Origin: Patescibacteria group bacterium | GTDB lineage: Bacteria; Patescibacteriota; Patescibacteriia; UBA9570 | DNA: 64,000 bases | Assembly (NCBI GenBank): GCA_041665365.1 | Contig: JBAYIY010000005.1 | Location: 5,946-69,945, forward strand | Direction: 5' to 3' | Shown here: positions 1 through 60,881 of the stretch, one piece after another | How positions within the stretch are numbered: the stretch's first letter is position 1 | Layout: every line of letters begins with the position of its first letter | Notes under the pieces: generated by a model | Told to the model about the DNA's origin: nothing | Databases searched by the model: none | What the model saw: the letters and a program-made list of their open reading frames with translations, nothing else | Translations under genes and position numbers: made by a program

Positions 1-118
1 TGGAGAATCTCAAGGCACTGCAGTGCAAGCCGAGCTGGGTAGAATTGAACGCTGGATTAGTTATGCCGAAATGCTATAATGATGATCGCTTATCATTCAA
101 CTAACCCGTAAACAATCT

Positions 119-1021
119 ATGTCGAGTTTACCACAACCTCCAACCAAATCTTGGTACAAACGCTGGTGGATCTGGCTGTTAATAATTGTTGTCCTGCTCG
201 CTGTTGCCGGTGTAATTGTACAACAAGTGCGCAGCTCAATAAGCTCAAGCAGTACAACCGCTGAACAAACCGTTATAGCAGAGCGCCGTGACTTAGCTAA
301 AACTATCGTGACCACTGGCAAAATTGCCCCAGAACACAGTGAAGCGTTATCTTTTAGTTTTGGTGGTAGTATCAAAGAATTAAACGTTGCGGTTGGCGAT
401 GAAGTAAGTAAAGATGATGTTTTGGCTAAAACTTCAAACCAAAGTTTGAAAGCGCCGTTTGATGGTCGAGTTATTTCTGTCAGTACCTTTGTTGGCTCCA
501 CTGCTACGCCTGGTATTCCAGTGATGGAAATTGGTTATCGCACAAACTTTATTGATTTTATCGCTTCCGAATCGGAGGTATTTGATATCACTACTGGTCA
601 AACAGCTGAACTAACTATCCCTACTTACAACACTGGTTCAACGGTTTACCATGGTACTGTTGAAACGGTGAGTTCTAAAAAAGTCATGTTAAGTGCTACT
701 GAAAACGGTTATCTGGTTCGTATTCGTCCAACTGATCTACCGGACACTGTGAACAATCGAATTGATTTAACGGTTAATGTTAAAGTTCTGATTGCCGAAA
801 AAACAAATGTTTTGTCGGTCGAACGCGCGGCGATTCAATATGACAGCGTTGATCGACCGTTTGTTTGGACGCCAAATTCAGTGACGCCAACCGAACCGAT
901 CGTACAAAACATAGTTACTGATTTTGAAGGAGATGATTATATCGAAATTACATCTGGTATTAAAGCGGGTGATACTATTTTGCTCAATATTCCTAAAGCG
1001 TCGACCAATTCAATTTTCTAA
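119..1021 (+). CDS. efflux transporter periplasmic adaptor subunit (HlyD/MacA-type membrane fusion protein)
   Basis: 300 aa with an N-terminal TM helix (WWIWLLIIVVLLAVAGVIV) and a lipoyl-like hairpin segment (GKIAPEHSEALSFSFGGSIKELNVAVGDEVSKDDVLA). It sits directly upstream of, and abuts, the MacB-type ATPase and permease genes. Confidence 0.55.
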   Translation: MSSLPQPPTKSWYKRWWIWLLIIVVLLAVAGVIVQQVRSSISSSSTTAEQTVIAERRDLAKTIVTTGKIAPEHSEALSFSFGGSIKELNVAVGDEVSKDDVLAKTSNQSLKAPFDGRVISVSTFVGSTATPGIPVMEIGYRTNFIDFIASESEVFDITTGQTAELTIPTYNTGSTVYHGTVETVSSKKVMLSATENGYLVRIRPTDLPDTVNNRIDLTVNVKVLIAEKTNVLSVERAAIQYDSVDRPFVWTPNSVTPTEPIVQNIVTDFEGDDYIEITSGIKAGDTILLNIPKASTNSIF

Positions 1022-1701
1022 TGAAACCATCCGGCACGCCAGTTATTAAAGTGGTTAATTTGGTAAAAACTTACTGGAGTGGCAGTGTAGCCGTAGAGGC
1101 CTTACGCGGTATTGACTTGGAAGTACCAGAGGGTGATTTCTTAGCCTTAATGGGTCCATCTGGTTCGGGTAAATCTACTTTAATGAACGTACTGGCTTTC
1201 TTGGATGCTCCCACGAGCGGTGAATATTGGTTTGCGGGCACTAATATCACCTCGTTTGATGATAACTACCGCGCCGAATTACGTAATGCAGTGTTGGGAT
1301 TTGTGTTTCAACAATTTCATCTCCTGGCTCGTACCACCGCACTGGATAATGTCGCCCTTCCCCTACTCTATGCCGGTGTAAAAAAATCCAAGGCGCGTGA
1401 ACGCGCATACGCAATGTTAAAAAAAGTTGGTTTAGCCCATCGCATTTATCACCGCCCGAATGAACTATCCGGTGGTCAACAACAACGTGTTTCTATAGCT
1501 CGAGCTTTAGTTAATAATCCAACAGTGTTGTTTTGTGATGAACCAACCGGTAATTTAGATTCAAAGACATCTAACGAAATCATGGAATTAATTGGTACCT
1601 TACATAAAGAAGGTAAAACCATTGTCATGGTCACCCACGAAGAAGAAGTGGCTGCTTTTGCGGCTAGAAAGATTATTTTACGCGATGGTAAAATTATATA
1701 G
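1021..1701 (+). CDS. ABC transporter ATP-binding protein (MacB/LolD-type)
   Basis: Walker A GPSGSGKST, ABC signature LSGGQQQRVSIARAL, Walker B VLFCDEPTGNLD and an H-loop (VMVTHEEE). Confidence 0.9.
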   Translation: MKPSGTPVIKVVNLVKTYWSGSVAVEALRGIDLEVPEGDFLALMGPSGSGKSTLMNVLAFLDAPTSGEYWFAGTNITSFDDNYRAELRNAVLGFVFQQFHLLARTTALDNVALPLLYAGVKKSKARERAYAMLKKVGLAHRIYHRPNELSGGQQQRVSIARALVNNPTVLFCDEPTGNLDSKTSNEIMELIGTLHKEGKTIVMVTHEEEVAAFAARKIILRDGKII

Positions 1702-1704
1702 ACT

Positions 1705-2949
1705 ATGATGCTTATTACTCACGTTCAAACTGCACTACGCCAATTACTCTCCAACAAAGCCAAATCAGCTTTAACCATGTTGGGTATTATTATCGGAATC
1801 GGTTCAGTTATTTTAATTATGACCTTAGGTGAAATTGCCAAACAGTTTTTGTTGGGTCAGATTTCTCAATTTGGTACCAATGTGATAGAAGTTGCCTCCA
1901 CTGGTTCGTTCGGTCCTTTCAAAGAAGAAGAACCAATCACTTTTAGTTTGCAAGATGCCGAAGCCCTCGAGCGTTCCAGTTTATTATCTGATATGGAAGC
2001 GATCTCAGCGGCTTATACTTCAGCTGGTACCTTAGAATACGACAGTAAAAAATATCAGATCATGATTTGGGGAGACAAGCCAGCTGTATTTACCATAAAC
2101 AAACTGGATGTTTTAGCGGGTAGAACTTTCACTGATGCTGAAGTAAATCGTAGTGATCGAGTGATTGTATTATCGCAAAAATTTGCTGAAGATGTGTTTG
2201 ATACATCGGCTAATGCTATTGGTAAAACAGTAACGGTGTCGGGTCGCGCCTTTACGGTTTTAGGTGTCGTTAATGATCCCCCCATGAGTGGTGGACCTTT
2301 TGGCGGTAGCTATACATATTTTCCTATCACCACCACTTATGCATATTTAGCCCCAGCGGCCGATAATAATAAAGTGATTTTTTTAATGATTTCTACCAAA
2401 CCAGAAACTGACACTGAACTATTTAAAGATCGCCTCTCATTTGAACTAAAAAGAATTAAACATTTAGACGATGCCCAGATGGAAGGTATTAGCGTGGCCA
2501 GTCGTGAACAAATGCTCAGTATTTTTAACAATGTGTTGCTTGGTATCCAAATGTTTGTCGCCGCTATCGCAGGCATCTCACTGTTTGTTGGTGGTATTGG
2601 GATTATGAATATCATGTTAGTGACAGTTAAGGAACGCACCAAAGAAATTGGTTTACGTAAGGCCGTGGGTGCCAAAAATAGTTCAATACTGATTCAATTC
2701 TTAATTGAAGCGGCTGTGTTAACCACGGTGGGTGGTTTGATTGGTATTGGTAGTGCCTTAGGTTTAGCTAACCTGGCTGTATTTGTGGTTAATATTGTGC
2801 AACCCACTTGGGCTATTCATTTTGTACTGGTGCCATCAGCTATTATTTTAGCCTGTGCTGTATCTATGAGTACCGGATTCATTTTTGGCCTGTATCCAGC
2901 GATGAAAGCCGCTAAATTACACCCTATCGAGGCACTCAGGTATGAGTAA
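1705..2949 (+). CDS. ABC transporter permease, FtsX/MacB family
   Basis: 414 aa with an N-terminal TM helix, a large periplasmic domain and three C-terminal TM helices (FtsX-like). It follows the ABC ATPase. Confidence 0.8.
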   Translation: MMLITHVQTALRQLLSNKAKSALTMLGIIIGIGSVILIMTLGEIAKQFLLGQISQFGTNVIEVASTGSFGPFKEEEPITFSLQDAEALERSSLLSDMEAISAAYTSAGTLEYDSKKYQIMIWGDKPAVFTINKLDVLAGRTFTDAEVNRSDRVIVLSQKFAEDVFDTSANAIGKTVTVSGRAFTVLGVVNDPPMSGGPFGGSYTYFPITTTYAYLAPAADNNKVIFLMISTKPETDTELFKDRLSFELKRIKHLDDAQMEGISVASREQMLSIFNNVLLGIQMFVAAIAGISLFVGGIGIMNIMLVTVKERTKEIGLRKAVGAKNSSILIQFLIEAAVLTTVGGLIGIGSALGLANLAVFVVNIVQPTWAIHFVLVPSAIILACAVSMSTGFIFGLYPAMKAAKLHPIEALRYE

Positions 2950-3439
2950 AATATACACCAAAACAGGAGATAAAGGCACGTCGGGGTTGTTTGGGGGTGA
3001 ACGAGTAAAAAAAAATCATCCAAGATTAGAGGCGTATGGCACATTAGATGAATTAAACAGCCATGTGGGTTTAATTGTGGCTTTACTCCCCGCTCAGCAA
3101 ACTCAATTACAAACTATTCAAAAAACCATTCAAAATATTGCGTCACACCTGGCCCTCGCTCCCTTACCTCAATTGTCACCTGATTTAATTACTGATCTGG
3201 AAAAATCTATTGATAAAATGACATCTACTCTACCTGAACTGCACGAATTCATCCTACCGGGTGGAAATATCATTTCTAGCCAAATTCACATTGCCAGAAC
3301 AGTCTGTCGCCGGGCAGAAAGAAATATTATTACCTTGGCTGAAACAGACACAATTGATCCGTTAATTATTCAATATATAAATAGATTATCAGATTGGTTA
3401 TTTACCCTAGCCCGTTATGTCCAATACAATAGCCACTAA
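2942..3439 (+). CDS. ATP:cob(I)alamin adenosyltransferase, PduO-type
   Basis: N-terminus MSKIYTKTGDKGTSGLFGGERVKKNHPRLEAYGTLDELNSHVG matches the PduO/MMAB-type adenosyltransferase signature (TKTGDxGxT...R..K......EAxGxxDELNS). Confidence 0.7.
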   Translation: MSKIYTKTGDKGTSGLFGGERVKKNHPRLEAYGTLDELNSHVGLIVALLPAQQTQLQTIQKTIQNIASHLALAPLPQLSPDLITDLEKSIDKMTSTLPELHEFILPGGNIISSQIHIARTVCRRAERNIITLAETDTIDPLIIQYINRLSDWLFTLARYVQYNSH

Positions 3440-4412
3440 AACCAAAGTCCAACCACAACTCCAATTACAGACGACTGGTTTAGTGTTAGGTTTAGATGTG
3501 GGTGCTACAAAAACCACTGCAGCCATCGGTGATAGTAAACGAATTTATAGTCAGGGCGAAAATGGCCCGGGTAACATTCATGATAATACACCAAATGACA
3601 TTATAACTCATTTACGTTCTGCCACAGACCAAGCTGTTAAACAACTGCACCTCGCGCAACTTCCGCAATTTCGCGCGATCGTAGTGGGTATGGCCGGCAT
3701 CGATTCACCGCACGATCAATCGTTAGCGGAAAAATTAGTTATACAAGCTTTGAAAACCTGGTTGGCACCGCACTGCCAATTACAAGTCATGAATGATATT
3801 CATATCGTTAGAAGTAGTGGGAGCGATGATCCGTACGGTATGGCTTTAATTGCCGGTACTGGCTCGCATTGTTTTGGTATAAATCATAAAGGTGAATTGG
3901 CTCATGCTGGAGGTTTAGAATATATATTATCTGATGAAGGGAGTGCTTATGAAATGGGTCTCAAGGCCTTACGCGCCGCGATTCGTAGTGGTGATGGCCG
4001 AATTAAACCAACTGGCCTAGAAAAGGCTGTTCTTAAACATTTCAAAGTAGGTACAATCAGATCACTGGAACCGGTTGTTTATCATGGAACCGGTTTAAGA
4101 AAAACCGACATTGCGCAGTTAGCCAAACTAGTTGACGCTCAAGCTAAAAAAGGTGATTGGCGCGCTTTAGAAATTATTGACGAAACCATGGCTGAACTGG
4201 TTTTATTAGTCTCGGCTGTTGTGCAGCGTCTTAAACTGCAGGCTGTCCCATTTGATTTAGTTGTAGTCGGCGGTGTCTTTAATATCAGTGCGCTACCATT
4301 CTTAGATACATTCAAAAAGAAGATTAAACCAATCTGTCCACGAGCCGAAGTGATACAACCGAAATACCCACCGGTATATGGCGCTGTGCGTTTAGCGGCC
4401 GCTATGGTTTAA
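3417..4412 (+). CDS. BadF/BadG/BcrA/BcrD-type ATPase (N-acetylglucosamine kinase-like)
   Basis: ASKHA-fold motifs: an N-terminal phosphate-1 motif LGLDVGATKTTAAIGD and a later GTGS block (ALIAGTGSHCFG). Confidence 0.55.
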   Translation: MSNTIATKTKVQPQLQLQTTGLVLGLDVGATKTTAAIGDSKRIYSQGENGPGNIHDNTPNDIITHLRSATDQAVKQLHLAQLPQFRAIVVGMAGIDSPHDQSLAEKLVIQALKTWLAPHCQLQVMNDIHIVRSSGSDDPYGMALIAGTGSHCFGINHKGELAHAGGLEYILSDEGSAYEMGLKALRAAIRSGDGRIKPTGLEKAVLKHFKVGTIRSLEPVVYHGTGLRKTDIAQLAKLVDAQAKKGDWRALEIIDETMAELVLLVSAVVQRLKLQAVPFDLVVVGGVFNISALPFLDTFKKKIKPICPRAEVIQPKYPPVYGAVRLAAAMV

Positions 4413-4578
4413 CAATACAATAGTGGGTTTCGTCATTATGGTAAATGACACCACACTTATCACATTGATTCATTTCCACTAACGCCCTACCGTGTTGTTC
4501 GCAGGCATCAGCCTGACAATTACCTGGTTCACCGGCTTGCCCATGGCAAGACCCAGCACAGACATAAACTTGAGACAT
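4402..4578 (-). CDS. small Cys-rich protein (58 aa), putative metal-binding
   Basis: Not in the ORF track (below its length cut-off). ATG at 4576-4578 (minus) is preceded by GGAGGAAAGG at 7-nt spacing. Translation is MSQVYVCAGSCHGQAGEPGNCQADACEQHGRALVEMNQCDKCGVIYHNDETHYCIVKP (8 Cys, 4 His). It lies immediately downstream of queG on the same strand. Confidence 0.3.
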   Translation of the reverse strand: MSQVYVCAGSCHGQAGEPGNCQADACEQHGRALVEMNQCDKCGVIYHNDETHYCIVKP

Positions 4579-4645
4579 AACCTTTCCTCCAGGTTAATAA
4601 TAAATTTACTGGCGGTAGTATACAAGTCATGGTCATCTTGTGCAA

Positions 4646-5701
4646 CTATTTTTGTAATCTATTCAATCCCCATTCAGCATGTTCCCTAATTAAAGGATCA
4701 TTATCATGGACTAACCACTCTAAGGTTTTAATATGCCCTGTGTGACCAGAATTACCTAGAGCCACGGCCACATTGCGTAATAAACCGGATCGTTTCACAC
4801 GCATAATCGGCGTTCCTTTAAACCGTTCCAAAAAAGTTGCTTCAGTTAATTGAGCCAAGTCTGTTAAATATGGTGCCTGCCGCTCTAACGCTGCATCAAA
4901 CCAGTCATTCTGAGTCTGTTTAGCCTGCTCGGTTCCATTCCACGGACAGACTTCCTGGCAGATATCACAACCATAAATGTTATTTTTCAATAACGGCCTA
5001 AATTGTTCTGGAATACTAGTTTTACTTTCAATGGTTAAATAAGACAAACACCGTCTGGCATCTATGACTTTATTTTTTACAATGGCCTGAGTTGGACAAT
5101 TTGCCAAGCAAGTATGACAGGTTCGGCAACCACCAGTTTTTTTATAAATAACTGGTGCTAAATTCTTATTCACAATAATCTCACAAATAAATAAATATGA
5201 GCCATACAGCGAATTTATTAACATTGAGTTATTACCGATAAAACCCAGTCCAGCGCGTTCGGCTAAGTCTCGTTCTAAAATTGGCCCAGTATCAACATAA
5301 GCGCGTGCTGAGACTGTATCCCCTAATTGTTCTTCTAAATATTTAATTAACACTAATAATTTTTTCTTGATGACTTTATGGTAATCTTTACCCCAAGTAT
5401 ACCGCGCAAATATCCCGCGCCTCGGATCATTTTTGATCGCATCTGGCAGATCACTAGTTCGATACGTATAAACCAGTGTAATGACAGATTGACCAGTCGG
5501 CAAAATATTACGAATATCAGCCCGTTTCTCTTTTCGTTGATTAGTTTCTAACCAGTTCATGTCAGCTTGATAGCGATGATCTAACCATTCACTAAATTGT
5601 GGAAAAGTCTGCGCTGGTTCAGTCGGTATTATACCCACTCGTAGAAACCCCAAGTGAGTTTGAGCCCAGTGGACAAGTTGCGCACTAAAATCTGGTGTCA
5701 T
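4646..5701 (-). CDS. queG: epoxyqueuosine reductase
   Basis: Two 4Fe-4S ferredoxin motifs (CRTCHTCLANCP and CDICQEVCPWN) and a HEAT-like C-terminus. Overall layout is typical of QueG. Confidence 0.8.
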   Translation of the reverse strand: MTPDFSAQLVHWAQTHLGFLRVGIIPTEPAQTFPQFSEWLDHRYQADMNWLETNQRKEKRADIRNILPTGQSVITLVYTYRTSDLPDAIKNDPRRGIFARYTWGKDYHKVIKKKLLVLIKYLEEQLGDTVSARAYVDTGPILERDLAERAGLGFIGNNSMLINSLYGSYLFICEIIVNKNLAPVIYKKTGGCRTCHTCLANCPTQAIVKNKVIDARRCLSYLTIESKTSIPEQFRPLLKNNIYGCDICQEVCPWNGTEQAKQTQNDWFDAALERQAPYLTDLAQLTEATFLERFKGTPIMRVKRSGLLRNVAVALGNSGHTGHIKTLEWLVHDNDPLIREHAEWGLNRLQK

Positions 5702-5717
5702 GTGGTAAAATATATTT

Positions 5718-6476
5718 ATGAGAACCGATTGGAATAAAGTATCTATCTGGTATGGTAAACATCTGCAAAAACCAGATACTTACCAACATAGTTTAATTTT
5801 CCCCAAAACACTGCACTTATTACAACCACAACCAGATAAACATTACCTAGATATTGCCTGTGGTGAAGGGGCGTTGGCCGAGCATATCATAAAAACCAAA
5901 AATACTCACGTCACCGGGGTAGATCTTGCCCCAAATTTAATCGCTCAGGCTAACAAAAAACAGTTACGTAACTGCCACTTTATAGTAGGTGATGCCACTA
6001 ATTTTCCCAAACAAATTCTTGAACACCAGTTTGATGGCGCCACTTGTATTTTAGCTTTACAAAATATCGCAGATATCACACCGATTTTCAAAGCCACCGC
6101 TAAAGTTCTAAAACCAAACTCCCCTTTGATTATTGTCTTAAACCATCCTTGTTTTCGTCCACCGCAACAAAGCGGCTGGGGGTTTGATGAACCACGTAAA
6201 CTCCAGTATCGCCGGATTGATACGTATATGAGTAGTTATCATGTGAACTTGACGGCCCATCCCGGTAAAAAAACCACTGTGAGTACAGTATCATTTCATC
6301 GCCCGTTACAAGATTACATAAATGGTTTAGGAGTCGCTGGTTTTATGATTGATCGCCTCGAAGAATGGACCTCCAATCGTGCCAGTCAACCGGGTGGTCG
6401 TGCCAAAGCCGAAAATCGATCCCGCCAGGAGTTTCCGTTGTTTATGGCGATTAGAGCTTATGTCACCTCTTTCTGA
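5718..6476 (+). CDS. class I SAM-dependent methyltransferase
   Basis: Motif I LDIACGEGALAEH, an acidic post-I residue (VTGVDLAP) and motif II/III-like blocks. Confidence 0.7.
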   Translation: MRTDWNKVSIWYGKHLQKPDTYQHSLIFPKTLHLLQPQPDKHYLDIACGEGALAEHIIKTKNTHVTGVDLAPNLIAQANKKQLRNCHFIVGDATNFPKQILEHQFDGATCILALQNIADITPIFKATAKVLKPNSPLIIVLNHPCFRPPQQSGWGFDEPRKLQYRRIDTYMSSYHVNLTAHPGKKTTVSTVSFHRPLQDYINGLGVAGFMIDRLEEWTSNRASQPGGRAKAENRSRQEFPLFMAIRAYVTSF

Positions 6477-8089
6477 TAACAACCTTCACAGTAAACTAAT
6501 TCTTTACGCTCCGGTGAATAGGTAGTAGAAAATTCTGTGCTGCACCGCCCGTGATGACTGTGATCAATTTGGGTGCACATACACTGCCGTTGCCACAGTT
6601 GTCGCGGATTGCGTAGCTGAAAGCGTTGTCGACGCCGTTCATCTGGACACAACTGTGGAATTGGTAAACCCATACGCTGATAAAAATCCAATTCGGCCTG
6701 CACAGTGCGATATGGTTTACCAGTCACGGCGCAAACTAAGGTGTTACTGTTTGTTACACTAGAGCCCGCTGCACTCGTATTTTCCCGCCACAACCAACCA
6801 TGATTACGTGTTTGCTCAGACGTTAATGGGTACCACATTTGCGCCATCGATTCATTATAAGCAAACGGTGACATTGTGATTGGAAAGAATTCACCCCATT
6901 CGCCGGTTTGCTTCATATGGGTAATCAACTTTTGCTGTAACTGTTTATAATCGGTTTCTGAGTAGGGTTTATTAAGAATGCAAAATTTTTCTTGCTTTAA
7001 CCCAACACACCCAAACAAATCATGGCCTTTTTCAATTTCGATACTATACACACAGTTAGTCGCCGACCACGCACCTATGGAAAATTTACAGTTATATGAT
7101 TGATACCCCAAACTACTACCTTCATAAGCTAATTCTATATCGGTAGTATGACAAACATCCATTAAATCTTTCACATGAAAACCAGTATACACATAAGCAC
7201 ACTGATCGATACCAGTTACATCGTAACACTGATAAGCAGCATGCGAATTAAAAATAAAATCACCCGATACTTGCTCGCTGCTGGCTTGCTCTAATGGCCG
7301 ATGAATAGCCTTGATCTTTAGTTCCTCAAATTTTGTTAACAATTCAGTCAGTTTACCCTGTCTTAATTTCTCCATAATCAGGCCCTTCTCTTGTGTATAT
7401 GCCTCCGGTGAATAATGTTTATTATAAATATAATATTGTTTATTTCTTAAATTGGTAGAGAATAAACAATCGGTGCAACCACGACAATCGAACAAAAACA
7501 AGCTATCGGTACAATGCTTACAATTTTGCGCAAACCACAAACGATAACATTTTTCCACATCAACTACCTCATAACAATCTTCACTTTCAATGCAATTCAA
7601 AGTATCCACACAACTAATCGATTTTATGATCTGACTAGAATACAAACAATCTTCATCGTAATCTCCGGCAAAGACCAAATAACAATCTTTGCAATGTCCG
7701 GTCATATTAACATAATTGGAATTCTCATTAGCAATGACTGTTAAAGCCATCTTTGGAACGGCTTTGAAAAGTTTATTCCATTGCGTAAAAAATGGCTGCG
7801 CGAAATCAATCTCTTGACCATAATCTAAAGCAGTCCATTGATCTGATAACCAACAATCGGAACAATATATTGTATAGACTGTTTCAGCTGGATAAATTGA
7901 GATTATTGGTTTATGACAAAGATCACACGGCCGATTAAACATCGTATGCTCATTCCGCCACGCCAAGCGCCGCTGTTGCCGACAATCTGGACACAAGGTT
8001 GGTGCTGGTACAGAAATCTTCTGATAAAAAACCTGATCGGAAGCTGTGATTTGAAAAGTTTTACTGCACTGTTGACATTGTTTGGTCAT
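6458..8089 (-). CDS. Cys-rich double-zinc-ribbon family protein, paralog 1 (unknown function)
   Basis: 543 aa. N-terminal CQQC...CPDCR and CDLCHK...YCSDCW ribbons, a central run of NC..C dyads, the conserved block FGCVGLKQEKFCILNKPYSETDY...GEWGEFFP...SPFAYNE, and a C-terminal block RNPRQLWQRQCMCTQIDH...TTYSPERKELVYCEGCY. The third ribbon is degenerate (CAVTG...LCPDERR). Its start overlaps the paralog 2 stop in ATGA. Confidence 0.8.
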   Translation of the reverse strand: MTKQCQQCSKTFQITASDQVFYQKISVPAPTLCPDCRQQRRLAWRNEHTMFNRPCDLCHKPIISIYPAETVYTIYCSDCWLSDQWTALDYGQEIDFAQPFFTQWNKLFKAVPKMALTVIANENSNYVNMTGHCKDCYLVFAGDYDEDCLYSSQIIKSISCVDTLNCIESEDCYEVVDVEKCYRLWFAQNCKHCTDSLFLFDCRGCTDCLFSTNLRNKQYYIYNKHYSPEAYTQEKGLIMEKLRQGKLTELLTKFEELKIKAIHRPLEQASSEQVSGDFIFNSHAAYQCYDVTGIDQCAYVYTGFHVKDLMDVCHTTDIELAYEGSSLGYQSYNCKFSIGAWSATNCVYSIEIEKGHDLFGCVGLKQEKFCILNKPYSETDYKQLQQKLITHMKQTGEWGEFFPITMSPFAYNESMAQMWYPLTSEQTRNHGWLWRENTSAAGSSVTNSNTLVCAVTGKPYRTVQAELDFYQRMGLPIPQLCPDERRRQRFQLRNPRQLWQRQCMCTQIDHSHHGRCSTEFSTTYSPERKELVYCEGCYQKEVT

Positions 8090-9771
8090 ACTGCTTCTTT
8101 TTGATAACAGTCTTCACAATAGAGAATCTCCTTACGGTCTGGCGAATAGGTTGTTTCAAAGTTCACGGCACAACGGCCTGCATGTTTATGGTCAATTTGT
8201 GTGCACATGCATTGACGCTGCCAGAGCTGGCGAGGATTACGTAAAAATCGACGTTGCAGATGACGACAGTAAAAACAAATATTTGGTAGTGGAATAATAC
8301 GCGCACGGTAATACTCTAGTTCATGGGTGGTAATCTTGTAGTTTTTGCGGCAATTTTGGCAGGCTAGAATTGCAGTCAATATATCATCATTCACTTCCTT
8401 AATATCATCCGGTAAAATGGTCATTGTTTCTTGTCCAACTGTACTAGGTAATTGCTCTTGCCAATGATAGCCCTGAGCTTGTGCCATAGATTGAGTTAGT
8501 GGGAACCACCATTGAGCAGAGGTTTCATTGTAGCCAAATGGACTGATCACCGCAGGAAAGTATTGTCCATATTCACCACGGTCTTGCATGGCCGTTATTA
8601 ACTTAGTACGTAATTCATAATATTCACTCGCCGCATATGACCGATTTAAAATGCAAAATTCTTTTTGTCTTAATGACACAGACCCAAAACAGTTTTTACA
8701 GCCAGATGAGCTGATACAGTATTCCATGTTACTGCTACCATCAAACACTTGGTGACAAAACTTAATGTTATAACAGTTACCCCCGACAATGGTGCAGTCA
8801 TAGATCAATTCGGCATTTAAACCATACTGATAGTAGTCATAACTATCTTTTACGTGCATGGATAACTGCGAACAGAATTTACTGTTCTCCACTTCTCGGC
8901 AATCATAACTAGCCAAGACATTTTTGCTTTGATAAATGTTATTACCGGTGCAATCTTCCGTCTTGTTGCTTTGTTGATATTTGTAAAACCTCGTCACTTG
9001 ATATTGATGTATTTTTTCCAACCAATACTGAACTTGGCTGTGCGAACCAAAATTTATGGCTTCGAGACGATGATTATACTCAACCTCAGTGAGCTGCTTA
9101 TTCAACCAATAATATTTTTGGTTACGTAAACCAACCGATCCAAAGCAATCATGACAACCCACACAATCCTTAAGCATGAAACTGTCCGAACAATTCAAAC
9201 AATCTTGCGACCACTTGAGATTATACGAATCATGACAATCTATACAGTTATAGCAAAGCTCACAGTTGAAATTATTATAACCATCCATGGTATCTTTGGA
9301 TTGTTTTAGGCCGTAAGTGTATAGACAGTTTTCGTTGAGGTCAGCATGAAAGATTAAGTAACAATTTTTATTATCACCGGCATAATTTGTATAATCGCTA
9401 TTTTCATTGTTTCCACCAACATCAGTCGCTTGATGTGGAATACATTGATCAAGTGCTTGCAATTGCGGAAAAAAAGGTTTAGTTAAATCAATCTCACTGC
9501 CATAGTCTAATGGATCCCACTTATCACTCCACCAACAAGCACGACAATATGAAACATAAGGCGAATTTGGTTTATAAATGGTCAGAATTTTTTTGTGACA
9601 CAATTGACACTCTCCTGGATATAAAATCATTTCATTACACCATGTCAGGCGCCGCTGTTGTCGGCAATCTGGACACAAGGTTGGTGCTGGTACAACAATC
9701 TTCTGATAAAAAGCCTGATCGGAATCTGTGATTTGAAAAGTTTTACTGCACTGTTGACATTGTTTGGTCAT
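8086..9771 (-). CDS. Cys-rich double-zinc-ribbon family protein, paralog 2
   Basis: 561 aa. The first 44 residues are near-identical to paralog 1 (MTKQCQQCSKTFQIT.SDQ.FYQKI.VPAPTLCPDCRQQRRL). C-terminal CQNCRKNYKIT...CFYCRH plus RNPRQLWQRQCMCTQIDH...YCEDCY. Confidence 0.8.
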   Translation of the reverse strand: MTKQCQQCSKTFQITDSDQAFYQKIVVPAPTLCPDCRQQRRLTWCNEMILYPGECQLCHKKILTIYKPNSPYVSYCRACWWSDKWDPLDYGSEIDLTKPFFPQLQALDQCIPHQATDVGGNNENSDYTNYAGDNKNCYLIFHADLNENCLYTYGLKQSKDTMDGYNNFNCELCYNCIDCHDSYNLKWSQDCLNCSDSFMLKDCVGCHDCFGSVGLRNQKYYWLNKQLTEVEYNHRLEAINFGSHSQVQYWLEKIHQYQVTRFYKYQQSNKTEDCTGNNIYQSKNVLASYDCREVENSKFCSQLSMHVKDSYDYYQYGLNAELIYDCTIVGGNCYNIKFCHQVFDGSSNMEYCISSSGCKNCFGSVSLRQKEFCILNRSYAASEYYELRTKLITAMQDRGEYGQYFPAVISPFGYNETSAQWWFPLTQSMAQAQGYHWQEQLPSTVGQETMTILPDDIKEVNDDILTAILACQNCRKNYKITTHELEYYRARIIPLPNICFYCRHLQRRFLRNPRQLWQRQCMCTQIDHKHAGRCAVNFETTYSPDRKEILYCEDCYQKEAV

Positions 9772-9800
9772 ACTTCGATAAACTCAGTATAAATAAACTC

Positions 9801-10580
9801 CTATTTACTCGACTCAACGGATTGATGCCACAACGTATAGAAGATATGTGCCTGATGATTGGCTAATTCTTTATTATGAATCGTAATACCAAATAGTTCT
9901 TGCCCGGGGAAAATGTAGGCTACGTGATCGGCGTAAATTAATTGATCACAGGTAGCACCAAGTTGACGCTGGCTTGATTCTGGAATTATTTCCTGAATAG
10001 TACTGCGCGCGACCGTATATGAACCGGAGGTTTCTAGAATCATTTTCAAGTGTAGATCTTTTTCCTTGCTGCGTAACATGATCTCCTCTAAAAATTCTAG
10101 ATACCGGCCATGCAGCGTGGGTGTATAATCCACCGCCGCGAGCACTAATAAATCGTCACCCTTTTTGGAATAAGTTAAAGCCTCATCCCAAATTTTGGCA
10201 ATCGCTTCCTGTGCGCGGAAATAATGAATCTCCAAATCTTCCGGTACTGACGCATAGAGAACATTTAATTCGCCAATTAGATTAGGCATGTCGGTGGCCA
10301 ACTTATCCAAATTGCGGCGCTCTTGTTCAAACACGGTCAGTAATTTAGCCGGTTTGGCCACTTTGCATTTTTGCCCATAGCTGCGCACATCCATATCCGC
10401 TAGCCCCTTTTGATTCAAGACTTTAAAAATATTGTAACCAGTCATGCGGGATAATCCAGCCCGTTCGGCAATTTGCGGAATCGTGGCTAAACCCAACTCT
10501 AATCCGGCCACATAAAATTTTATATCGTTGTCCGTTAAACCAAGTTGTAAAAGATCTTTCTTAATTTTGCTTGTGATCAT
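9801..10580 (-). CDS. TrmB-family transcriptional regulator
   Basis: N-terminal wHTH typical of TrmB (LGLTDNDIKFYVAGLELGLATIPQIAERAGLSRMTGYNIFKVLNQKGL) followed by a C-terminal effector domain. Confidence 0.65.
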   Translation of the reverse strand: MITSKIKKDLLQLGLTDNDIKFYVAGLELGLATIPQIAERAGLSRMTGYNIFKVLNQKGLADMDVRSYGQKCKVAKPAKLLTVFEQERRNLDKLATDMPNLIGELNVLYASVPEDLEIHYFRAQEAIAKIWDEALTYSKKGDDLLVLAAVDYTPTLHGRYLEFLEEIMLRSKEKDLHLKMILETSGSYTVARSTIQEIIPESSQRQLGATCDQLIYADHVAYIFPGQELFGITIHNKELANHQAHIFYTLWHQSVESSK

Positions 10581-10690
10581 AGGTTATCATGTGCCGTAAC
10601 GTGGTCAAACGTGATTATATTTCTACCTGTGGAAAATGAATAAAATAGCTAGCCTTAGGTTAGCAGATTAACCAAACATGTCAAATCAAC

Positions 10691-12307
10691 TTATACTACA
10701 GTTTTTGTATAACAGTCTTCACAATACACTAACTCTTTTCTATCTGGTGAATAAGTGGTTTCAAATTCGGTTTTACAACCAGTATTCATGCATTGTTTAT
10801 GCCATAATTGATACGGCACACGATGTTTCATACGCTCAATATGTCGGCAGTCTGGGCAAATTTCTGGCCAGGGTATGTTCTGAGTGGCGTAAAACTTCAA
10901 TTCTTGCGGAATTAATTTAAAACTCTTGTGACAGTGTGTGCAATCATAAATTTGTTTAGTCGCATCGGCTTTACCATAAGTGCCAGGCAGCTGATCTTGC
11001 CACATCCAACCGCTAGCGCGCGCTTGCGCTTTGGTTAGCGGAAACATTTCTTGGGCCATCGTCTCATTATACGCATAGGTAGACAGCGCCGGCGAAAAGA
11101 ATTGACCCCACTCGCCGGTTTGTTTCATGTGCTCGATTAATTTATCTTTCAGTGTATTATAATCTGTCTCAGAATACTGTTTATTTAAAATGCAATATTT
11201 TTCATTTTTTAAACCAATACAACCAAAACAATTTTCCGGTCCATTTAAACATTGATCACAGTACAAGTTATTTTGCCCATGCCAAACAATATTACAAAAC
11301 CAATTACCATACGCTTGTCCACCACAAGCATGCGCTTCATAGAGCAGCTCGGCTTCTTCACCGTAAACGGTAAAATCGTAGCAATCTTTCGATTGAAAGA
11401 TGCCAAAACAATACGCACAATGTTCTGAGGTTTTTGTTTGAAAGGAAAATGTTGTAGCCAGATTGCCGACTAAATAATCACCACTACTCATCTCATTGCG
11501 TAAACCACGATAATACTTATACGGTACTGTCAGGGTGAATTCATTAAACTCATCACGCGCTCGGTTAATGCCTGCCCGAGTATCTAATTGATAACTAGCT
11601 AACTTTTTAGCATAGTCTTCCGGGTTATATTGCTGATTAAAAATACAATACGATTTGTTCCGTAAACCCACCGACATAAAACAATTTGAACATCCATTAC
11701 AATCTGTTAAAAAATATGAATCGCGACAATTATTAACATGCCACGAGTAATTGACATTGTAACAATCCTCACTATGCGTGGTTTCGTAACACAGCTCACA
11801 TTTGTGGTTATAACTGCAATCAATTGAATCTTTTACATAGTAGATGCCCAACGAATATAAGGAATTTTCACAATCAGTGGCATCGTACACCATGTAACAA
11901 TTCTTTAATCTATAAACGTGATTACAATAATCACTATTTTCCCCGGTGGCATCATTCATTAAAGCAATGCGCGGTACACGCTGTTTGAGCTCTAACAGTT
12001 GATCAAACAACGGTCGCGTAAAATCAATGTCTTGACCATAATCAAGTGGGTTCCATGTATCACTCCACCAACACGTGCGACAATACACTGTATACTTTTT
12101 ATCCGGTGAATACACAGACAAAGTATTATTACCACACACCGCACACTGGCGTTGATATAAAGTATGTTCATTACGATTCGTTAAACGTAATTGAAACCGA
12201 CACGCCGGACACCGTACCGGCTTAGGTACGCCCAAACGCTTGTAATAAGCCTGATCCGCCTCAGTAATGATGAAACTATGTTGACAGTGCTGACAAGTTG
12301 TTTCCAT
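10691..12307 (-). CDS. Cys-rich double-zinc-ribbon family protein, paralog 3
   Basis: 538 aa. METTCQHCQHSFIITEADQAYYKRLGVPKPVRCPACRFQLRL, central Cys dyads, the FGCIGLKNEKYCILNKQYSETDY...GEWGQFF block, and C-terminal CTHCHKSF...CPDCRH...TTYSPDRKELVYCEDCY. Confidence 0.8.
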   Translation of the reverse strand: METTCQHCQHSFIITEADQAYYKRLGVPKPVRCPACRFQLRLTNRNEHTLYQRQCAVCGNNTLSVYSPDKKYTVYCRTCWWSDTWNPLDYGQDIDFTRPLFDQLLELKQRVPRIALMNDATGENSDYCNHVYRLKNCYMVYDATDCENSLYSLGIYYVKDSIDCSYNHKCELCYETTHSEDCYNVNYSWHVNNCRDSYFLTDCNGCSNCFMSVGLRNKSYCIFNQQYNPEDYAKKLASYQLDTRAGINRARDEFNEFTLTVPYKYYRGLRNEMSSGDYLVGNLATTFSFQTKTSEHCAYCFGIFQSKDCYDFTVYGEEAELLYEAHACGGQAYGNWFCNIVWHGQNNLYCDQCLNGPENCFGCIGLKNEKYCILNKQYSETDYNTLKDKLIEHMKQTGEWGQFFSPALSTYAYNETMAQEMFPLTKAQARASGWMWQDQLPGTYGKADATKQIYDCTHCHKSFKLIPQELKFYATQNIPWPEICPDCRHIERMKHRVPYQLWHKQCMNTGCKTEFETTYSPDRKELVYCEDCYTKTVV

Positions 12308-12314
12308 AAGGTGA

Positions 12315-13877
12315 TTAATATATTAGCTTATTGTAACACCCTTCACAATACACTGTTTCTTTTCTATCTGGTGCATAAGTGGTTTCAAACTCTACCTGAC
12401 ACCCTTTATTCATACATTGACGGTGCCATAAGCGACGCGGATTGCGTAATTTCATTCTATCCAAATGTCGGCACTGCGGACAAAGCTGCGGTACTGGCAA
12501 ATGCCATTGCTGATAATAGGCCAGTTCATTAGCAACTAGGCGATAATTTTTCGCACAGCGCTGACAGGTTGGTAGATTATCAACCTGGTTGTCTAGCTGT
12601 TTTGTGACAGTTTCAGCCATAGGAAAATACTCCTGAGCCACTGTGTCTTGATATGGAAATGGCGACAGTGACAATGGAAAAAATTCTCCCCACTCCCCGT
12701 GTTGTGTCATACCTTGTTTAATTTGTTTTACCAAAGTATTATAATCTGTTTCCGAATAAGACTTATTTAAAATACAATATTGTTGTTTACGTAAACCAAT
12801 GCAACCAAATAAATTCTGGCTGGTAAAACAATGATCACAATAAAACAAATTGGAATTCCCATCCCAACAAATATTTAAACCAAGACTGTTTTTAGTCTGT
12901 AAACTACTATGACATTCGTAAGTTAACTCATTCTCAACTCCACCAATAAATAAATCCCGACTGTCCTTTGTTTGCCGCACATCAAATACATAAGCTGTTT
13001 GCTCCTGGTCAATCACATCAAACCCATAAGTAGTTTGGTAACAATTTTTCATTAAATCACCGGAAGATTGTTCACAATTAATTTGCTCACTGGCTAAATG
13101 CGGTAACGCTATTTCTAGTTTAGCTAGTTGAGCGCGATACTGTGCAATCGTTTCATGTGTCCAATTAACCGCCGCTAAACGTGCTCGGTAGTCAGCTTCA
13201 CTTAATTGTTCATTGAACCAACAAAACTTTTTATTGCGCAAATTAACACAGCCAAAACAATCGCTGCAGTTACGACACGCATATGAAAAATAACAATCCC
13301 GACAATTAACACAGCGTTGTGAAAAAAACACTTGATAACAATCACTGCACTCAACTATTTCGTAACACAATTCACAGCGATACGGCATAATAAAATCCAT
13401 ACAGTCACGCGAGTGAAATGGAAACATACCATACAGACAATTTTCATTATCAATGCCACCGGCTGACAAATATAAATTTTTCCCGGCTACTGCCCACGGC
13501 GCATAATCGCAATTTTCACAATTGCGAGTGGTAATGGCCATGCGCGGCACCACTAATTGTAAAGCCCGAATTTGCTCAAAAAAAGATTGACCCGGTTGAT
13601 ATACCCGACCAAAACTAAGTGGATCCCAAACATCAGACAACCAGCAAGTTTGACAGTATATGGTGTATGGGCTATCTGGTGCATATAATGAAATCACTGC
13701 TTTGCCACATAAGCGGCACTTATCTGCGTACAAACTCCGCTCATTCCGCCACGCCAAGCGCCGCTGTTGCCGACAATCTGGACACAAGGTTGGCTGCGGT
13801 ACAGCCATACGTTGATAAAACTCCAGATCGGCTGGATAAATGGTAAATGTTTGCTGACAATTAGTGCACTTACTCAT
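12315..13877 (-). CDS. Cys-rich double-zinc-ribbon family protein, paralog 4
   Basis: The track start is 13904; I prefer Met10 (MSKCTNCQQTF, ATG 13875-13877) by alignment to the other paralogs. That start lies 2 nt after the RelE stop. Same conserved blocks (FGCIGLRKQQYCILNKSYSETDY...GEWGEFFP...; C-terminal CPQCRH...TTYAPDRKETVYCEGCY). Confidence 0.75.
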   Translation of the reverse strand: MSKCTNCQQTFTIYPADLEFYQRMAVPQPTLCPDCRQQRRLAWRNERSLYADKCRLCGKAVISLYAPDSPYTIYCQTCWLSDVWDPLSFGRVYQPGQSFFEQIRALQLVVPRMAITTRNCENCDYAPWAVAGKNLYLSAGGIDNENCLYGMFPFHSRDCMDFIMPYRCELCYEIVECSDCYQVFFSQRCVNCRDCYFSYACRNCSDCFGCVNLRNKKFCWFNEQLSEADYRARLAAVNWTHETIAQYRAQLAKLEIALPHLASEQINCEQSSGDLMKNCYQTTYGFDVIDQEQTAYVFDVRQTKDSRDLFIGGVENELTYECHSSLQTKNSLGLNICWDGNSNLFYCDHCFTSQNLFGCIGLRKQQYCILNKSYSETDYNTLVKQIKQGMTQHGEWGEFFPLSLSPFPYQDTVAQEYFPMAETVTKQLDNQVDNLPTCQRCAKNYRLVANELAYYQQWHLPVPQLCPQCRHLDRMKLRNPRRLWHRQCMNKGCQVEFETTYAPDRKETVYCEGCYNKLIY

Positions 13878-14139
13878 AAACGTCACGCCGATGTCCAACA
13901 TCAAGAATGATTAATTTAATTGTCGAAAAAGATTCATGACTTAATTGTAAAATCACCCGATAATCACCTACCCGCAAACGATGTGTGGCTGGAGCAAAAT
14001 TATGCAACGGTTTTAAAACCGATATTATATCCGGATGGGTTTTAAGCTGTTTTAGTTTGCTGACAATTCGGCTCTGTTGTACGACATGTAATTTTTTGAA
14101 TCGTTTCTCAGCCCACTGACTAAAAACAAAAGTAACCAT
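13870..14139 (-). CDS. type II toxin, RelE/ParE family
   Basis: 89 aa. C-terminal RVGDYRVILQL...LDVGHRRDVYE matches the RelE/ParE core motif. It lies 3 nt downstream of the antitoxin gene. Confidence 0.8.
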   Translation of the reverse strand: MVTFVFSQWAEKRFKKLHVVQQSRIVSKLKQLKTHPDIISVLKPLHNFAPATHRLRVGDYRVILQLSHESFSTIKLIILDVGHRRDVYE

Positions 14140-14141
14140 GT

Positions 14142-14390
14142 TTAAATGACTAAACTACTAAGACCAGATTTAGCTGATTGTTGATAACGCCGTTGCAATT
14201 TTTCAGCATTTTTATTCATGGCAAAATCTTCTAAATAATCACTAATGGTGTCATCACAACCATCAAAATACGGTAACATAACAATTCTACCTTTGCCGTG
14301 ATTGGTGACAATATAGCTTTTGTCTGCAATGGCAGTAGAAATGGTTCCAATGCGTTGTTGTACTTCAGTTGTAGTAATAATACTAGTCAT
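14142..14390 (-). CDS. type II antitoxin, Phd/YefM-like
   Basis: 82 aa with the Phd/YefM-like pattern (TTTEVQQRIGTISTAIADKSYIVTNHGKGRIVMLPYFDG). Upstream of and tightly coupled to the RelE/ParE gene. Confidence 0.55.
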   Translation of the reverse strand: MTSIITTTEVQQRIGTISTAIADKSYIVTNHGKGRIVMLPYFDGCDDTISDYLEDFAMNKNAEKLQRRYQQSAKSGLSSLVI

Positions 14391-14441
14391 AGTTATATTT
14401 TATTTAATATATATTATCGTATACTATTTCATATATTTATG

Positions 14442-16013
14442 TCAAGCTACTATTCTTTGATAACAGTCTTCACAATACACTAACTCTTTTCTATCTGATG
14501 CATAAGTGGTTTCGAATTCGTTTTTACAACCTTTATTCATGCATTGACGATGCCACAAGGTCATTGGGTTTTGAAATTTGAATCGTTCCGCCAGACGACA
14601 GTTTGGGCACAAGTGTGGTTGGGGTAGACGCATCTTTTGATAAAAAGCTAGCTCTTGGGCAATAATCTTAAATGGGTGGGTACACTGGGTGGTTTTGGTT
14701 TCAGTTAATGGAAAATATGCTTGAGCCAAAGTTTCATTATAAGTATACATGGATAAATCTAATGGAAAAAATTCACCATACGTGTATCTCAGACCTTTGG
14801 TATCAACGTACGGCATGTCGATCATGTGTTGTTTAATTTTTTTGACTAGATCGTGGTAAGCAGATGCAGAATACTGTTTATTTAAAATACAATACTGTTT
14901 TTTTCTGACACCGACACAACCGAAGATATCGGCTGAATTTATGGCTAACAGCGCATATTCTAAATTACGACAATCCGGCCAGCTCATGATACTAAATTTC
15001 ACATTGTAAACATTCTCCCCTACCCCCACACATTCATAGGCTCGCTCCACATTATTACCCCAGGATAAATAATCATAAGAGTCACGTATGGGATTAAGCC
15101 CACTTAACATAATGTATTTGCAATTTTCGGCCTGACTAACTTGATAAGCCTGATAAGTATGTCTAGAATTATCAACATAATCGCCAGACACACTGTCATT
15201 TTTTTTACCATGCATGTATTTTACTGGGTATTGCAACCAATTATTACTCGCTTCAGTTTTGAGCCGGTGTATTTCAGTATTAGATGTAAAGTCTACGCTC
15301 GCTAATTTAGCCAGGTAGGTGTCTTTATCCAGTGGCTGATTAAACCAATAATAATTTTGATTATGCAAATTAGCTGACCCAAAACAATTGGTGCAACCAA
15401 CTAAATTTCGTGAAAAATATATATCACTAGAATCATTACAATCAATCGAGTAAAAGGTGCGATAACATTTTTTTATGTTACTACTCCAATAACACAATTC
15501 CGACTCGTCAACCATGTTGCAATCAAAACAATCTTTAGATTTAGTGATATTATCGCAATAATAAGAATCTTCGACATAATCAGAATGAAACACCAGATAA
15601 CAATTTTTTAAATGACCCACATTCATACAGTAGTCACTATTCTCCAATGTGGGAGTGTCAGAGCATAATGCCATCAAGGGCACGCGCTGCATGAGTTGTT
15701 TAAATTGTGTAAAAAACGGTTTAGAAAAATCATAGTCAGTGCCATATGTCATCGCCTCCCACTGGTCAGACCACCAACAAGTGTTACAGTACACTGTATA
15801 AGGTTTATCTGAGGAATACATTGATAACATTGACTTACCGCATAAATCACACTGGTCTTGATACAACGACCGCATGTTATAAAAACTCAACCGCCGAATT
15901 AACCGACACTGTGGACACCACGTGGGTGGTGGCACAGCCATTTGTTTATAAAAATCTAAATCCATTTGATCAAGCACAAAGCGTTGCTGACAGCGAACAC
16001 ATTGTTTAATCAT
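14442..16013 (-). CDS. Cys-rich double-zinc-ribbon family protein, paralog 5
   Basis: 523 aa. MIKQCVRCQQRFVLDQMDLDFYKQMAVPPPTWCPQCRLIRRL, Cys dyads, FGCVGVRKKQYCILNKQYSASAY, and a C-terminal CPNCR...NPMTLWHRQCMNKGC...TTYASDRKELVYCEDCY. Its start overlaps the stop of the 923-aa gene (ATGA). Confidence 0.8.
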   Translation of the reverse strand: MIKQCVRCQQRFVLDQMDLDFYKQMAVPPPTWCPQCRLIRRLSFYNMRSLYQDQCDLCGKSMLSMYSSDKPYTVYCNTCWWSDQWEAMTYGTDYDFSKPFFTQFKQLMQRVPLMALCSDTPTLENSDYCMNVGHLKNCYLVFHSDYVEDSYYCDNITKSKDCFDCNMVDESELCYWSSNIKKCYRTFYSIDCNDSSDIYFSRNLVGCTNCFGSANLHNQNYYWFNQPLDKDTYLAKLASVDFTSNTEIHRLKTEASNNWLQYPVKYMHGKKNDSVSGDYVDNSRHTYQAYQVSQAENCKYIMLSGLNPIRDSYDYLSWGNNVERAYECVGVGENVYNVKFSIMSWPDCRNLEYALLAINSADIFGCVGVRKKQYCILNKQYSASAYHDLVKKIKQHMIDMPYVDTKGLRYTYGEFFPLDLSMYTYNETLAQAYFPLTETKTTQCTHPFKIIAQELAFYQKMRLPQPHLCPNCRLAERFKFQNPMTLWHRQCMNKGCKNEFETTYASDRKELVYCEDCYQRIVA

Positions 16014-27916: not shown

Positions 27917-27940
27917 GGCGCTAGTGTAGCAGGTTCAGTC

Positions 27941-35770: not shown

Positions 35771-35803
35771 ACGGCATTGTAATAATACTACAAAAAATCT
35801 AAT

Positions 35804-35831
35804 CGCGCAAGATCCGCGCATAAATCGCGCA
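35804..35831. promoter_or_regulatory. triple 11-nt-periodic direct repeat CGCGCA upstream of the second Fic gene (candidate operator)
   Basis: CGCGCA at 35804-35809, 35815-35820 and 35826-35831, lying 34-61 nt upstream of the proposed start at 35770. Confidence 0.35.
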
Positions 35832-35853
35832 AGCCTGATTAACATTTTACTGC

Positions 35854-60862: not shown

Positions 60863-60881
60863 GAAGTGATATTGCTACCAA

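Follow-up and report, generated by a model that had tools for sequence, protein, structure and literature searches.

Within a contig of a Patescibacteria metagenome-assembled genome (MAG) deposited at NCBI, a 64-kb window, a term that here denotes the whole stretch of DNA analysed, carries a tandem array of five diverged paralogous genes, designated P1 to P5, particular pairs of which share short patches of identical or nearly identical DNA at their ends. These patches, designated tracts A, B and C, and their probable origin are the subject of this article. All coordinates are positions in the window. The array occupies 6458-16013, and the five paralogs, all on the minus strand, are full-length genes with intact open reading frames (ORFs). 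The NCBI proteins from the contig include MFA6475157.1, MFA6475160.1 and MFA6475164.1. The genes of the array that are needed for the description of the tracts are as follows.

6458-8089, minus strand: P1, ORF of 543 amino acids (aa), MFA6475157.1; zf_Tbcl (PF13451) match of 28.9 bits; orthologs at 66-71% aa identity
8086-9771, minus strand: P2, ORF of 561 aa, 100% identical to P0112; orthologs at 56-59% aa identity
9801-10580, minus strand: TrmB-like helix-turn-helix (HTH) regulator inside the array (Pfam PF01978, 5.7e-08)
10691-12307, minus strand: P3, ORF of 538 aa; orthologs L001_1 and L004_1 at about 57%
12315-13877, minus strand: P4, ORF of 520 aa counted from its ATG; orthologs at 61-67%
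14442-16013, minus strand: P5, ORF of 523 aa, aligning over its full length with the other four paralogs

The paralogs and their tracts of shared DNA

The encoded proteins are cysteine-rich, measure 520-561 aa and share 40-44% aa identity in pairwise comparisons, the centre of the protein being the least conserved part (34-40% aa), and the gene-wide DNA identity among the paralogs is 0.50-0.55. An N-terminal treble-clef zinc finger of the zf_Tbcl type is recognised above the Pfam gathering threshold of 24 bits in P1 (28.9), P2 (28.1), P3 (33.8) and P4 (27.5 bits); P5 scores 19.4 bits, under the threshold, yet aligns to P1-P4 throughout. AlphaFold2, given an alignment of 116 sequences, models P1 with confidence (pLDDT 90.5, pTM 0.91); the predicted order is two N-terminal zinc-ribbon units, a central beta-solenoid with a helical insertion (residues ~120-375 in the model), a helical region and C-terminal zinc-ribbon units. 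P1 is described here as a zinc-ribbon/beta-solenoid protein. The stop codon of P2 overlaps the start codon of P1 (ATGA). P4 is 100% identical to P0236, which is annotated at 520 aa, and the use of a TTG at 13904, upstream of the P4 ATG, as start is unlikely. The family is without a described function: a literature search on PF13451, DUF8128 or the paralog family in Patescibacteria found nothing, and PADLOC and PHROGs scans returned nothing informative for the paralogs.

A separate feature of P1 concerns its C-terminus (6458-6700, minus strand), where 'VCAVTGKPY...CPDERRRQR' replaces 'C..C.K.Y...CP.CRH', with loss of the cysteine ligands of the C-terminal treble clef. The same loss is seen in all P1 orthologs (L001, L002, L004 and L006), and the site looks like a degenerate zinc site that has been kept in the P1 subfamily.

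Self-alignment of the array resolves three tracts of identity amid this background of ~50% DNA identity, the copies of which are listed below with their positions in gene nucleotides (nt) where these apply.

7983-8092, minus strand: tract A, P1 copy, gene nt -3 to +107; the 49 nt at 8044-8092 match P2 exactly
9665-9774, minus strand: tract A, P2 copy, a direct repeat in matching reading register, 1682 nt from the P1 copy
7948-8002, minus strand: tract B, P1 copy, gene nt +88 to +142, overlapping tract A by 20 nt
13739-13793, minus strand: tract B, P4 copy, in frame, 5791 nt from the P1 copy
10709-10795, minus strand: tract C, P3 copy, 19-105 nt before the final base of the stop codon
14460-14546, minus strand: tract C, P5 copy, 3751 nt from the P3 copy

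Tract A differs at 4 of 110 nt between P1 and P2 (96.4% identity); the two copies are the same from -3 to +46 and differ at +47, +59, +76 and +77 only. Downstream of it, mismatch rises to 21% from +108 to +140, which is ordinary for the motif encoded there, and to ~50% past +141. The end of the tract was set at +107 because the P1/P2 identity over the 54-nt motif, 46 of 54, is unremarkable against the null distribution given below. All differences within tract A are nonsynonymous (A16D, V20A and S26V, the last involving two adjacent bases), with no synonymous difference. Tract B is an exact match of 55 nt between P1 and P4 that encodes PTLCPDCRQQRRLAWRNE, and its edges are sharp, with mismatches at every position from +84 to +87 and dense mismatches 3' of +142. 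The 5' end of P1, the partner in both of these tracts, is therefore a mosaic, P2-like from -3 to +107 and P4-like from +88 to +142, and in the 20-nt overlap of tracts A and B the three genes P1, P2 and P4 are identical. Tract C, recovered from self-BLAST, links P3 and P5 at their 3' ends; its copies, 87 nt long, differ at 6 positions and include an uninterrupted match of 38 nt.

Two of these tracts had been described in an earlier note on this DNA. Its comparison of 7968-8089 in P1 with 9650-9771 in P2 reproduces exactly (6 mismatches in 122 nt, 95.1%); the figure of ~95% is thus correct, although the 122 nt mix the 110-nt tract at 96.4% with background sequence. The block reported as identical between P1 and P4 is real, with 7948-8002 equal to 13739-13793 over 55 nt, but the coordinates given for it, 7950-8003 and 13740-13793, are one base out of register when paired as written and give 40 mismatches, the P1 coordinates being 1-2 nt off. 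The direct-repeat spacings of ~1.7 and ~5.8 kb agree with the measured 1682 and 5791 nt, and the proposed self-alignment yields not only the expected tracts but also tract C, which the note lacked.

Chance, protein constraint, duplication and assembly

The tracts were evaluated with a Sawyer/GENECONV-style permutation test on 1143 ungapped polymorphic sites, in which the observed P1/P2, P1/P4 and P3/P5 fragments were reached in 0 of 5000 permutations. The resulting values are p<0.0002 for tract A, p<0.0002 for tract B, which comprises a run of 38 concordant polymorphic sites, and, for tract C, p=0.004 by run and p<0.0002 by score. The P2/P4 pair reaches significance only through the 20 nt common to tracts A and B. 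The identities are specific to pairs of genes and do not extend array-wide among the five paralogs.

Synonymous identity, which the earlier note had suggested comparing inside and outside the tracts, is in marked excess within them. At conserved degenerate residues, the paralogs use the same codon gene-wide in a fraction of 0.45-0.59, and across genomes the identical-codon fraction of the N-terminal region is 0.49 (2217/4497); over the N-terminal 47 codons of P1 and P2, by comparison, 36 of 40 such codons are identical (0.90), and in tract B all 17 of 17 are, the overall background being 0.49-0.55. The aa motif of tract B, PTLCP[DN]CRQQRRLAWRNE, is native to the P1 and P4 ortholog lineages, and therefore the aa identity alone is uninformative for this tract; it is also native to the P2 orthologs, and it is encoded differently in every other genome. 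Among 403 other family gene pairs, identity over the 54-nt motif has a mean of 36.6/54 (standard deviation 3.9) and a maximum of 48/54, reached between orthologs, and the 54/54 of P1 and P4 lies above that maximum.

These values bear directly on an explanation without any recombination, in which purifying selection on the conserved zinc-ribbon motif, together with a genome-specific codon bias, would keep the DNA alike. In its favour, the tracts lie where the protein is most conserved, the DNA of the 12-residue core CRQQRRLAWRNE has ~85% identity (30.6/36) in comparisons between genomes, and the P1/P2 stretch from +108 to +142 (46/54) falls within the null range. The same explanation would have to accommodate 54/54 observed against a null maximum of 48/54, same-codon fractions of 0.49 across genomes against 0.90 in tract A, and tracts that are pair-specific; in the seven sister arrays, which carry the same motifs, no within-array exact match exceeds 24 nt and blastn identity does not exceed 87%. 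It was rejected as highly improbable. A nucleotide-level functional element conserved within the tract, for instance a binding site for a regulator or a structured RNA, might be suggested by the start of tract A at the translation start region and by the TrmB-like regulator encoded in the array. No Rfam family was matched in the array, the 5' region folds worse than shuffled sequence (z=+1.85), synonymous sites are not conserved across genomes and the identity is pair-specific, all of which leave such an element with a negligible probability.

Orthologs in other genomes provide a further line of evidence. Those for which DNA was compared are, for P1, L001, L002, L004, L006, L012 and L013 (66-71% aa), for P2, L010 (59%), and for P4, L008 and L009 (67%). 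From codon 48 to the end, DNA identity to the own orthologs is 0.67-0.68 for P1, 0.62 for P2 and 0.68 for P4, and each of the three is only ~0.50 identical to the other window paralogs over the same part, P1 being 0.50 identical to P2 and to P4. In codons 1-35, P1 and P2 are 0.96 identical, and in codons 30-47 P1 and P4 are 1.00 identical. These segment-wise nucleotide identities are in phylogenetic conflict: the tracts group the paralogs of one genome, and the flanks group the orthologs. Since the genes are closest to their own orthologs outside the tracts, the sequence comparison places the duplications before the speciation from the sequenced relatives and makes the tracts young, a pattern typical of ectopic conversion. 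The opposite order of events, in which the genes duplicated recently, the tracts being what is left of the original identity and the remainder having diverged rapidly under positive selection, fits the tandem arrangement of the genes and the adjacency of P1 and P2, but the orthologs of P1-P4 in other genomes (56-71% aa) are far closer to them than any paralog in the window (39-45%), and this alternative was rejected as having almost no chance of being correct.

In L013, the P1 ortholog (860-900) and the paralog adjacent to it upstream (2601-2645) are identical over 27 nt at their 5' ends, GTTCAATGTAGTAAAACCTTTCAGATC, with a shift of one codon, which may represent an older or smaller conversion of a like kind.

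Assemblers that use small k can be misled by an exact repeat of 55 nt, and the window comes from short reads of a metagenome, so a chimeric join or a collapsed repeat was also considered. L007, a contig of a separate assembly (JGI 3300037810), matches the window from 7827 to 14014 at 99.984% and contains tracts A and B in both their copies and tract C in P3, but ends before tract C in P5; L003 matches positions 1-7652 at 99.974%. Each gene keeps its own paralog type on both sides of each tract, and therefore the assembly did not switch paths at the repeats. The copies of tracts A and C are moreover imperfect matches and hence not collapsed. An assembly artefact was accordingly rejected, its likelihood being minimal. 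Taken with the synonymous identity, the phylogenetic conflict and the different encoding of the motif elsewhere, this independent assembly bears out the preference of the earlier note for intra-array gene conversion or recombination over selection acting on the protein.

Recurrence in the family and genomic setting

The family was surveyed by scanning GTDB representatives (one genome per species) with an alignment of the five paralogs, which yielded 74 loci from Peregrinibacteria/Peribacteria, Kerfeldbacteria, Uhrbacteria, Falkowbacteria, Staskawiczbacteria, Nomurabacteria, Saccharibacteria, Gracilibacteria and others. A hidden Markov model search of the survey ORFs identified 360 family genes, or 342 once redundant loci were dropped, and loci of up to 22 kb hold 1-12 family genes each. 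Pairs with less than 60% aa identity were treated as diverged, an exact match of at least 38 nt was taken as the cut-off for a tract, and matches at the same coordinates between overlapping ORFs were excluded. Within-locus pairs were taken from outside the window, and the per-locus permutation tests described above apply to the window array only.

Within loci, 24 of 837 diverged pairs, distributed over 15 of 64 loci, contain an exact match of at least 38 nt, the longest being 84 nt, with high-scoring segment pairs of 64-553 nt at 75-96% identity; 23 of the 24 tracts lie at most ~200 nt from a start or stop codon. Between loci, six diverged pairs among 57,463 reach this length, and five of the six join two contigs (L043 and L054) of one Falkowbacteria MAG, leaving a single true between-genome case in 57,463, or 1 in 10,204 when matched for GC content (Fisher p=2e-26 versus 24/837). 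This last comparison also argues against selection combined with codon bias. From the within-locus excess and the terminal position of the matches it follows that, as judged from these sequences, terminal homogenisation within genomes is a recurrent property of the paralog family, of which the window provides a clear example.

Two further observations were made during the survey. The densest inter-paralog tracts were found in L017 (Candidatus Peribacteria RIFOXYB1_FULL_54_35, MFYJ01000013.1), with exact matches of 84, 63, 56, 56, 49, 49, 44 and 42 nt located at the 5' and 3' ends of genes, several of them crossing gene junctions. Several loci (L014, L015, L022, L023, L026, L033 and others, including the closest P1 orthologs) come from TPA_asm records titled 'uncultured Gammaproteobacteria bacterium'; these titles are probably a labelling error, and the gene content and synteny fit Patescibacteria.

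The other features in and around the array are listed below.

13870-14139, minus strand: ParE-like toxin gene, inside the array between P5 and P4; its stop overlaps the P4 start by 8 nt
14142-14390, minus strand: Phd/YefM-like antitoxin gene, inside the array, paired with the ParE-like toxin gene
16010-18781, minus strand: ORF of 923 aa between the ATPase gene and P5, with no Pfam match
18760-20823, minus strand: TrwB/VirD4/HerA-like ATPase
20826-22319, minus strand: DUF8128-like protein
22297-23391, minus strand: sigma-70 region-4/HARE-HTH protein
60880-61230, minus strand: RNase P RNA, class A, bacterial (204.8 bits), the sole Rfam match in the window

The toxin-antitoxin pair has no counterpart at the P5/P4 position in the sister arrays examined, and the TrmB-like regulator is syntenic in L001, L002, L004, L006, L008 and L010. 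Upstream of the array lies a conserved trio, consisting of the sigma-70 region-4/HARE-HTH protein, the DUF8128-like protein and the TrwB/VirD4-like ATPase; the 923-aa ORF is not found at the corresponding position in L001 and L006. Both the ATPase (4.6e-66) and the DUF8128-like protein (4.1e-12) match phrog_5156, a phage family with no assigned function, as if the two proteins were split halves of one fused phage protein. A functional tie between the paralogs and the ATPase is a guess drawn from synteny. The surrounding housekeeping genes encode SecA, SecDF, Mur ligases, FtsW, MurJ and LepA, in addition to the RNase P RNA, and ARAGORN found no tRNA genes in the 64 kb. Elsewhere in the window, a second tandem pair at 26525-29335 (minus strand) encodes adjacent paralogs of 463 and 464 aa with FG-GAP repeats and a YkuD L,D-transpeptidase domain, a further FG-GAP protein is encoded at 46730-48574, and Fic/DOC-domain proteins are encoded at 32006-33034 and 34712-35857 (minus strand), with the gene for a major facilitator superfamily transporter between them.

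Mechanism, direction and significance

The tracts are very probably the footprints of recent ectopic (interlocus) gene conversion, that is, of conversion between non-allelic copies in one chromosome. RecA-type recombination needs only tens of base pairs of near-perfect identity (~25 bp in Escherichia coli), and conversion tracts stop where mismatches become dense. The five genes are ancient paralogs, separated before the divergence from the sequenced relatives, in which the ends coding for the N- and C-terminal zinc ribbons are the only parts with runs similar enough for strand invasion. Occasional invasion between copies on the same or the sister chromosome would begin at these ends, heteroduplex repair would copy 55-110 nt from one paralog into another, and the transfer would abort at the edge of the conserved domain, where similarity collapses; every patch would extend the perfect homology on offer for the next event. 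Three separate events can be made out, namely P1/P2 from -3 to +107, P1/P4 from +88 to +142 and P3/P5 at the 3' end, of which the P1/P2 event would be slightly aged or patchily repaired and the P1/P4 event, with zero differences, very recent. The terminal zinc-ribbon modules would in this way undergo concerted evolution, and the central beta-solenoid would diverge.

Several points weigh against this account. The four differences in tract A, nonsynonymous without exception, are unexpected under neutral decay, the count being too small to interpret. Tract C is the weakest of the three, and the genes of the array are in general much alike in the DNA of the 3' motif (89% over 56 nt between P3 and P4). 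Evidence on artefacts and on the population comes from assembled contigs and not from reads. No recA was found among the window genes examined, recombination genes in the rest of the genome not having been searched for. Finally, the ortholog comparisons give small, partly conflicting leans on the direction of transfer, and for patches this short, seen in one genome, a reciprocal exchange is conceivable.

With respect to direction, we lean slightly towards P1 having donated sequence twice, to P2 and to P4, each time in a simple event. Over residues 5-29, P1 and P2 resemble the P1 orthologs at 0.63 and 0.68, respectively, versus 0.56 and 0.58 for the P2 orthologs, and in DNA tract A is 0.75-0.78 identical to L012, the closest P1 ortholog, versus 0.70-0.71 to the P2 ortholog. 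Tract B is 0.87 identical to L012 versus 0.81-0.83 to the P4 orthologs, and P4 has Asp35 like the P1 and P2 types, the residue being Asn in 4 of 5 P4 orthologs. Just past the tract, P2 keeps its lineage-specific WCNE and P1 keeps WRNEHT. For tract C, the C-terminus of P3 deviates from the P3 orthologs toward the P5/P4 type, which suggests a transfer from P5 to P3. Two other directions were considered and dropped: P2 to P1, which had been based on 'MTKQC' and 'PTLC', features that closer P1 orthologs (P0001 and P0007) share, and P4 to P1, which had been based on nucleotide comparison with P4 orthologs, L012 being closer still.

The same tracts could also reflect, as a variant of the same mechanism, reciprocal or multi-step events, such as unequal crossing-over, excision of a circle that re-integrates at the conserved 5' segment, or transformation with allele replacement, which would have inserted P2 between the TrmB-like gene and P1 and duplicated the 5' segment, producing an 'apparent conversion' of the type modelled by Tsuru and Kobayashi (PMC2568036). 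In L001, L002, L004, L005, L006 and L008 the TrmB-like gene is directly followed by a P1-type gene, and P2 lies between them only in the window; the two copies of tract A, in direct orientation and at a spacing of 1682 nt, lie exactly on either side of the P2 body, and array order and copy number vary widely among the relatives (1-12 genes per locus). Against this stands the fact that single-crossover integration duplicates only a segment that is already near-identical and so leaves the identity itself unexplained. Tracts B and C connect genes that are not neighbours; they are short blocks, internal or terminal, and the sequence on either side is of the paralog type expected for the gene, a better fit to patch conversion. 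In metagenome contigs, from a collection without this population, no recombinant junction was seen. Such events are considered unlikely as the source of the tracts, and conversion of short patches is the preferred explanation.

Direct repeats 1682, 3751 and 5791 nt apart could plausibly mediate deletion or duplication. After a P1xP2 crossover the P2 body would be gone and the TrmB-like gene would directly precede P1, as it does in the relatives, and a P1xP4 or P3xP5 crossover would yield in-frame chimeras. The earlier proposal that the repeats are substrates for deletion or expansion of the array stands insofar as they are in-frame direct repeats with exact runs of 38-55 nt, but no variant junction was found. 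In a metagenome collection that does not contain this population, the predicted P2-deletion junction had 0 matches, the 20-mer common to P1, P2 and P4 matched only an unrelated family member (L088), and no array-length polymorphism was found.

Comparable processes are known from several bacterial systems. In the tandem lpl cluster of Staphylococcus aureus, a conserved DNA segment within each ORF is the site of homologous recombination, resulting in apparent conversions, deletions, duplications and translocations, and the arrays differ between genomes (Tsuru and Kobayashi 2008, PMC2568036). The window array is likewise composed of tandem diverged paralogs with conserved recombining segments; however, lpl has a central recombinogenic segment and variable ends, whereas in the window it is the terminal segments that are conserved and homogenised and the centre that varies. 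The lpl genes encode lipoproteins, whereas the window paralogs are zinc-ribbon/beta-solenoid proteins without a signal peptide, and the evidence for lpl comes from many strains of one species, whereas no within-species rearrangement was seen for the window array.

A comparable layout is offered by babA/babB/babC of Helicobacter pylori, which are conserved at the 5' and 3' ends and divergent in between and in which RecA-dependent conversion between loci gives chimeras and homogenised ends. The window paralogs share the conserved ends and divergent middle, but the bab genes are scattered in the genome and their products are surface adhesins subject to selection by the host, whereas the window genes are tandem, and bab conversion was shown experimentally, whereas conversion in the window is deduced from sequence. 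In tufA/tufB and the rRNA operons, non-allelic recombination keeps duplicates identical within a genome while orthologs diverge; these are homogenised over their whole length, and the window paralogs only in 55-110-nt patches, being otherwise ~50% identical. In Neisseria pilE/pilS and Borrelia vlsE, silent, promoterless partial cassettes donate variable segments to one expression site at high frequency. Segmental transfer between tandem or nearby related sequences is common to these systems and the window, but the window copies are all full-length ORFs, with no silent donors feeding a single expression locus, the conserved parts are those transferred and the events are sparse. The mechanism is a textbook one; what is new is its setting, in an uncharacterised gene family.

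The analysis documents, with controls, ectopic homologous recombination acting in the small genomes of Patescibacteria. Phylogenetic trees of the family built from N- or C-terminal domains will mislead, caution is required with short-read assemblies of such arrays, and the in-frame repeats predict specific, searchable deletion and chimera products. A more far-reaching proposal, which we regard as rather unlikely, is that the terminal zinc-ribbon modules are built-in recombination handles with which central beta-solenoid cassettes are shuffled, deleted or amplified, the arrays being a modular diversification system that works with the adjacent VirD4/TrwB-like ATPase, for example for secreted or host-interaction factors; if this were true, a selected, recurrent process, rather than sporadic conversion, would have left the homogenised ends behind as a by-product. 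Independently of this proposal, recombination shapes a phylum-wide family of ~540-aa proteins with paired zinc ribbons and a beta-solenoid, present in 1-12 tandem copies per locus.

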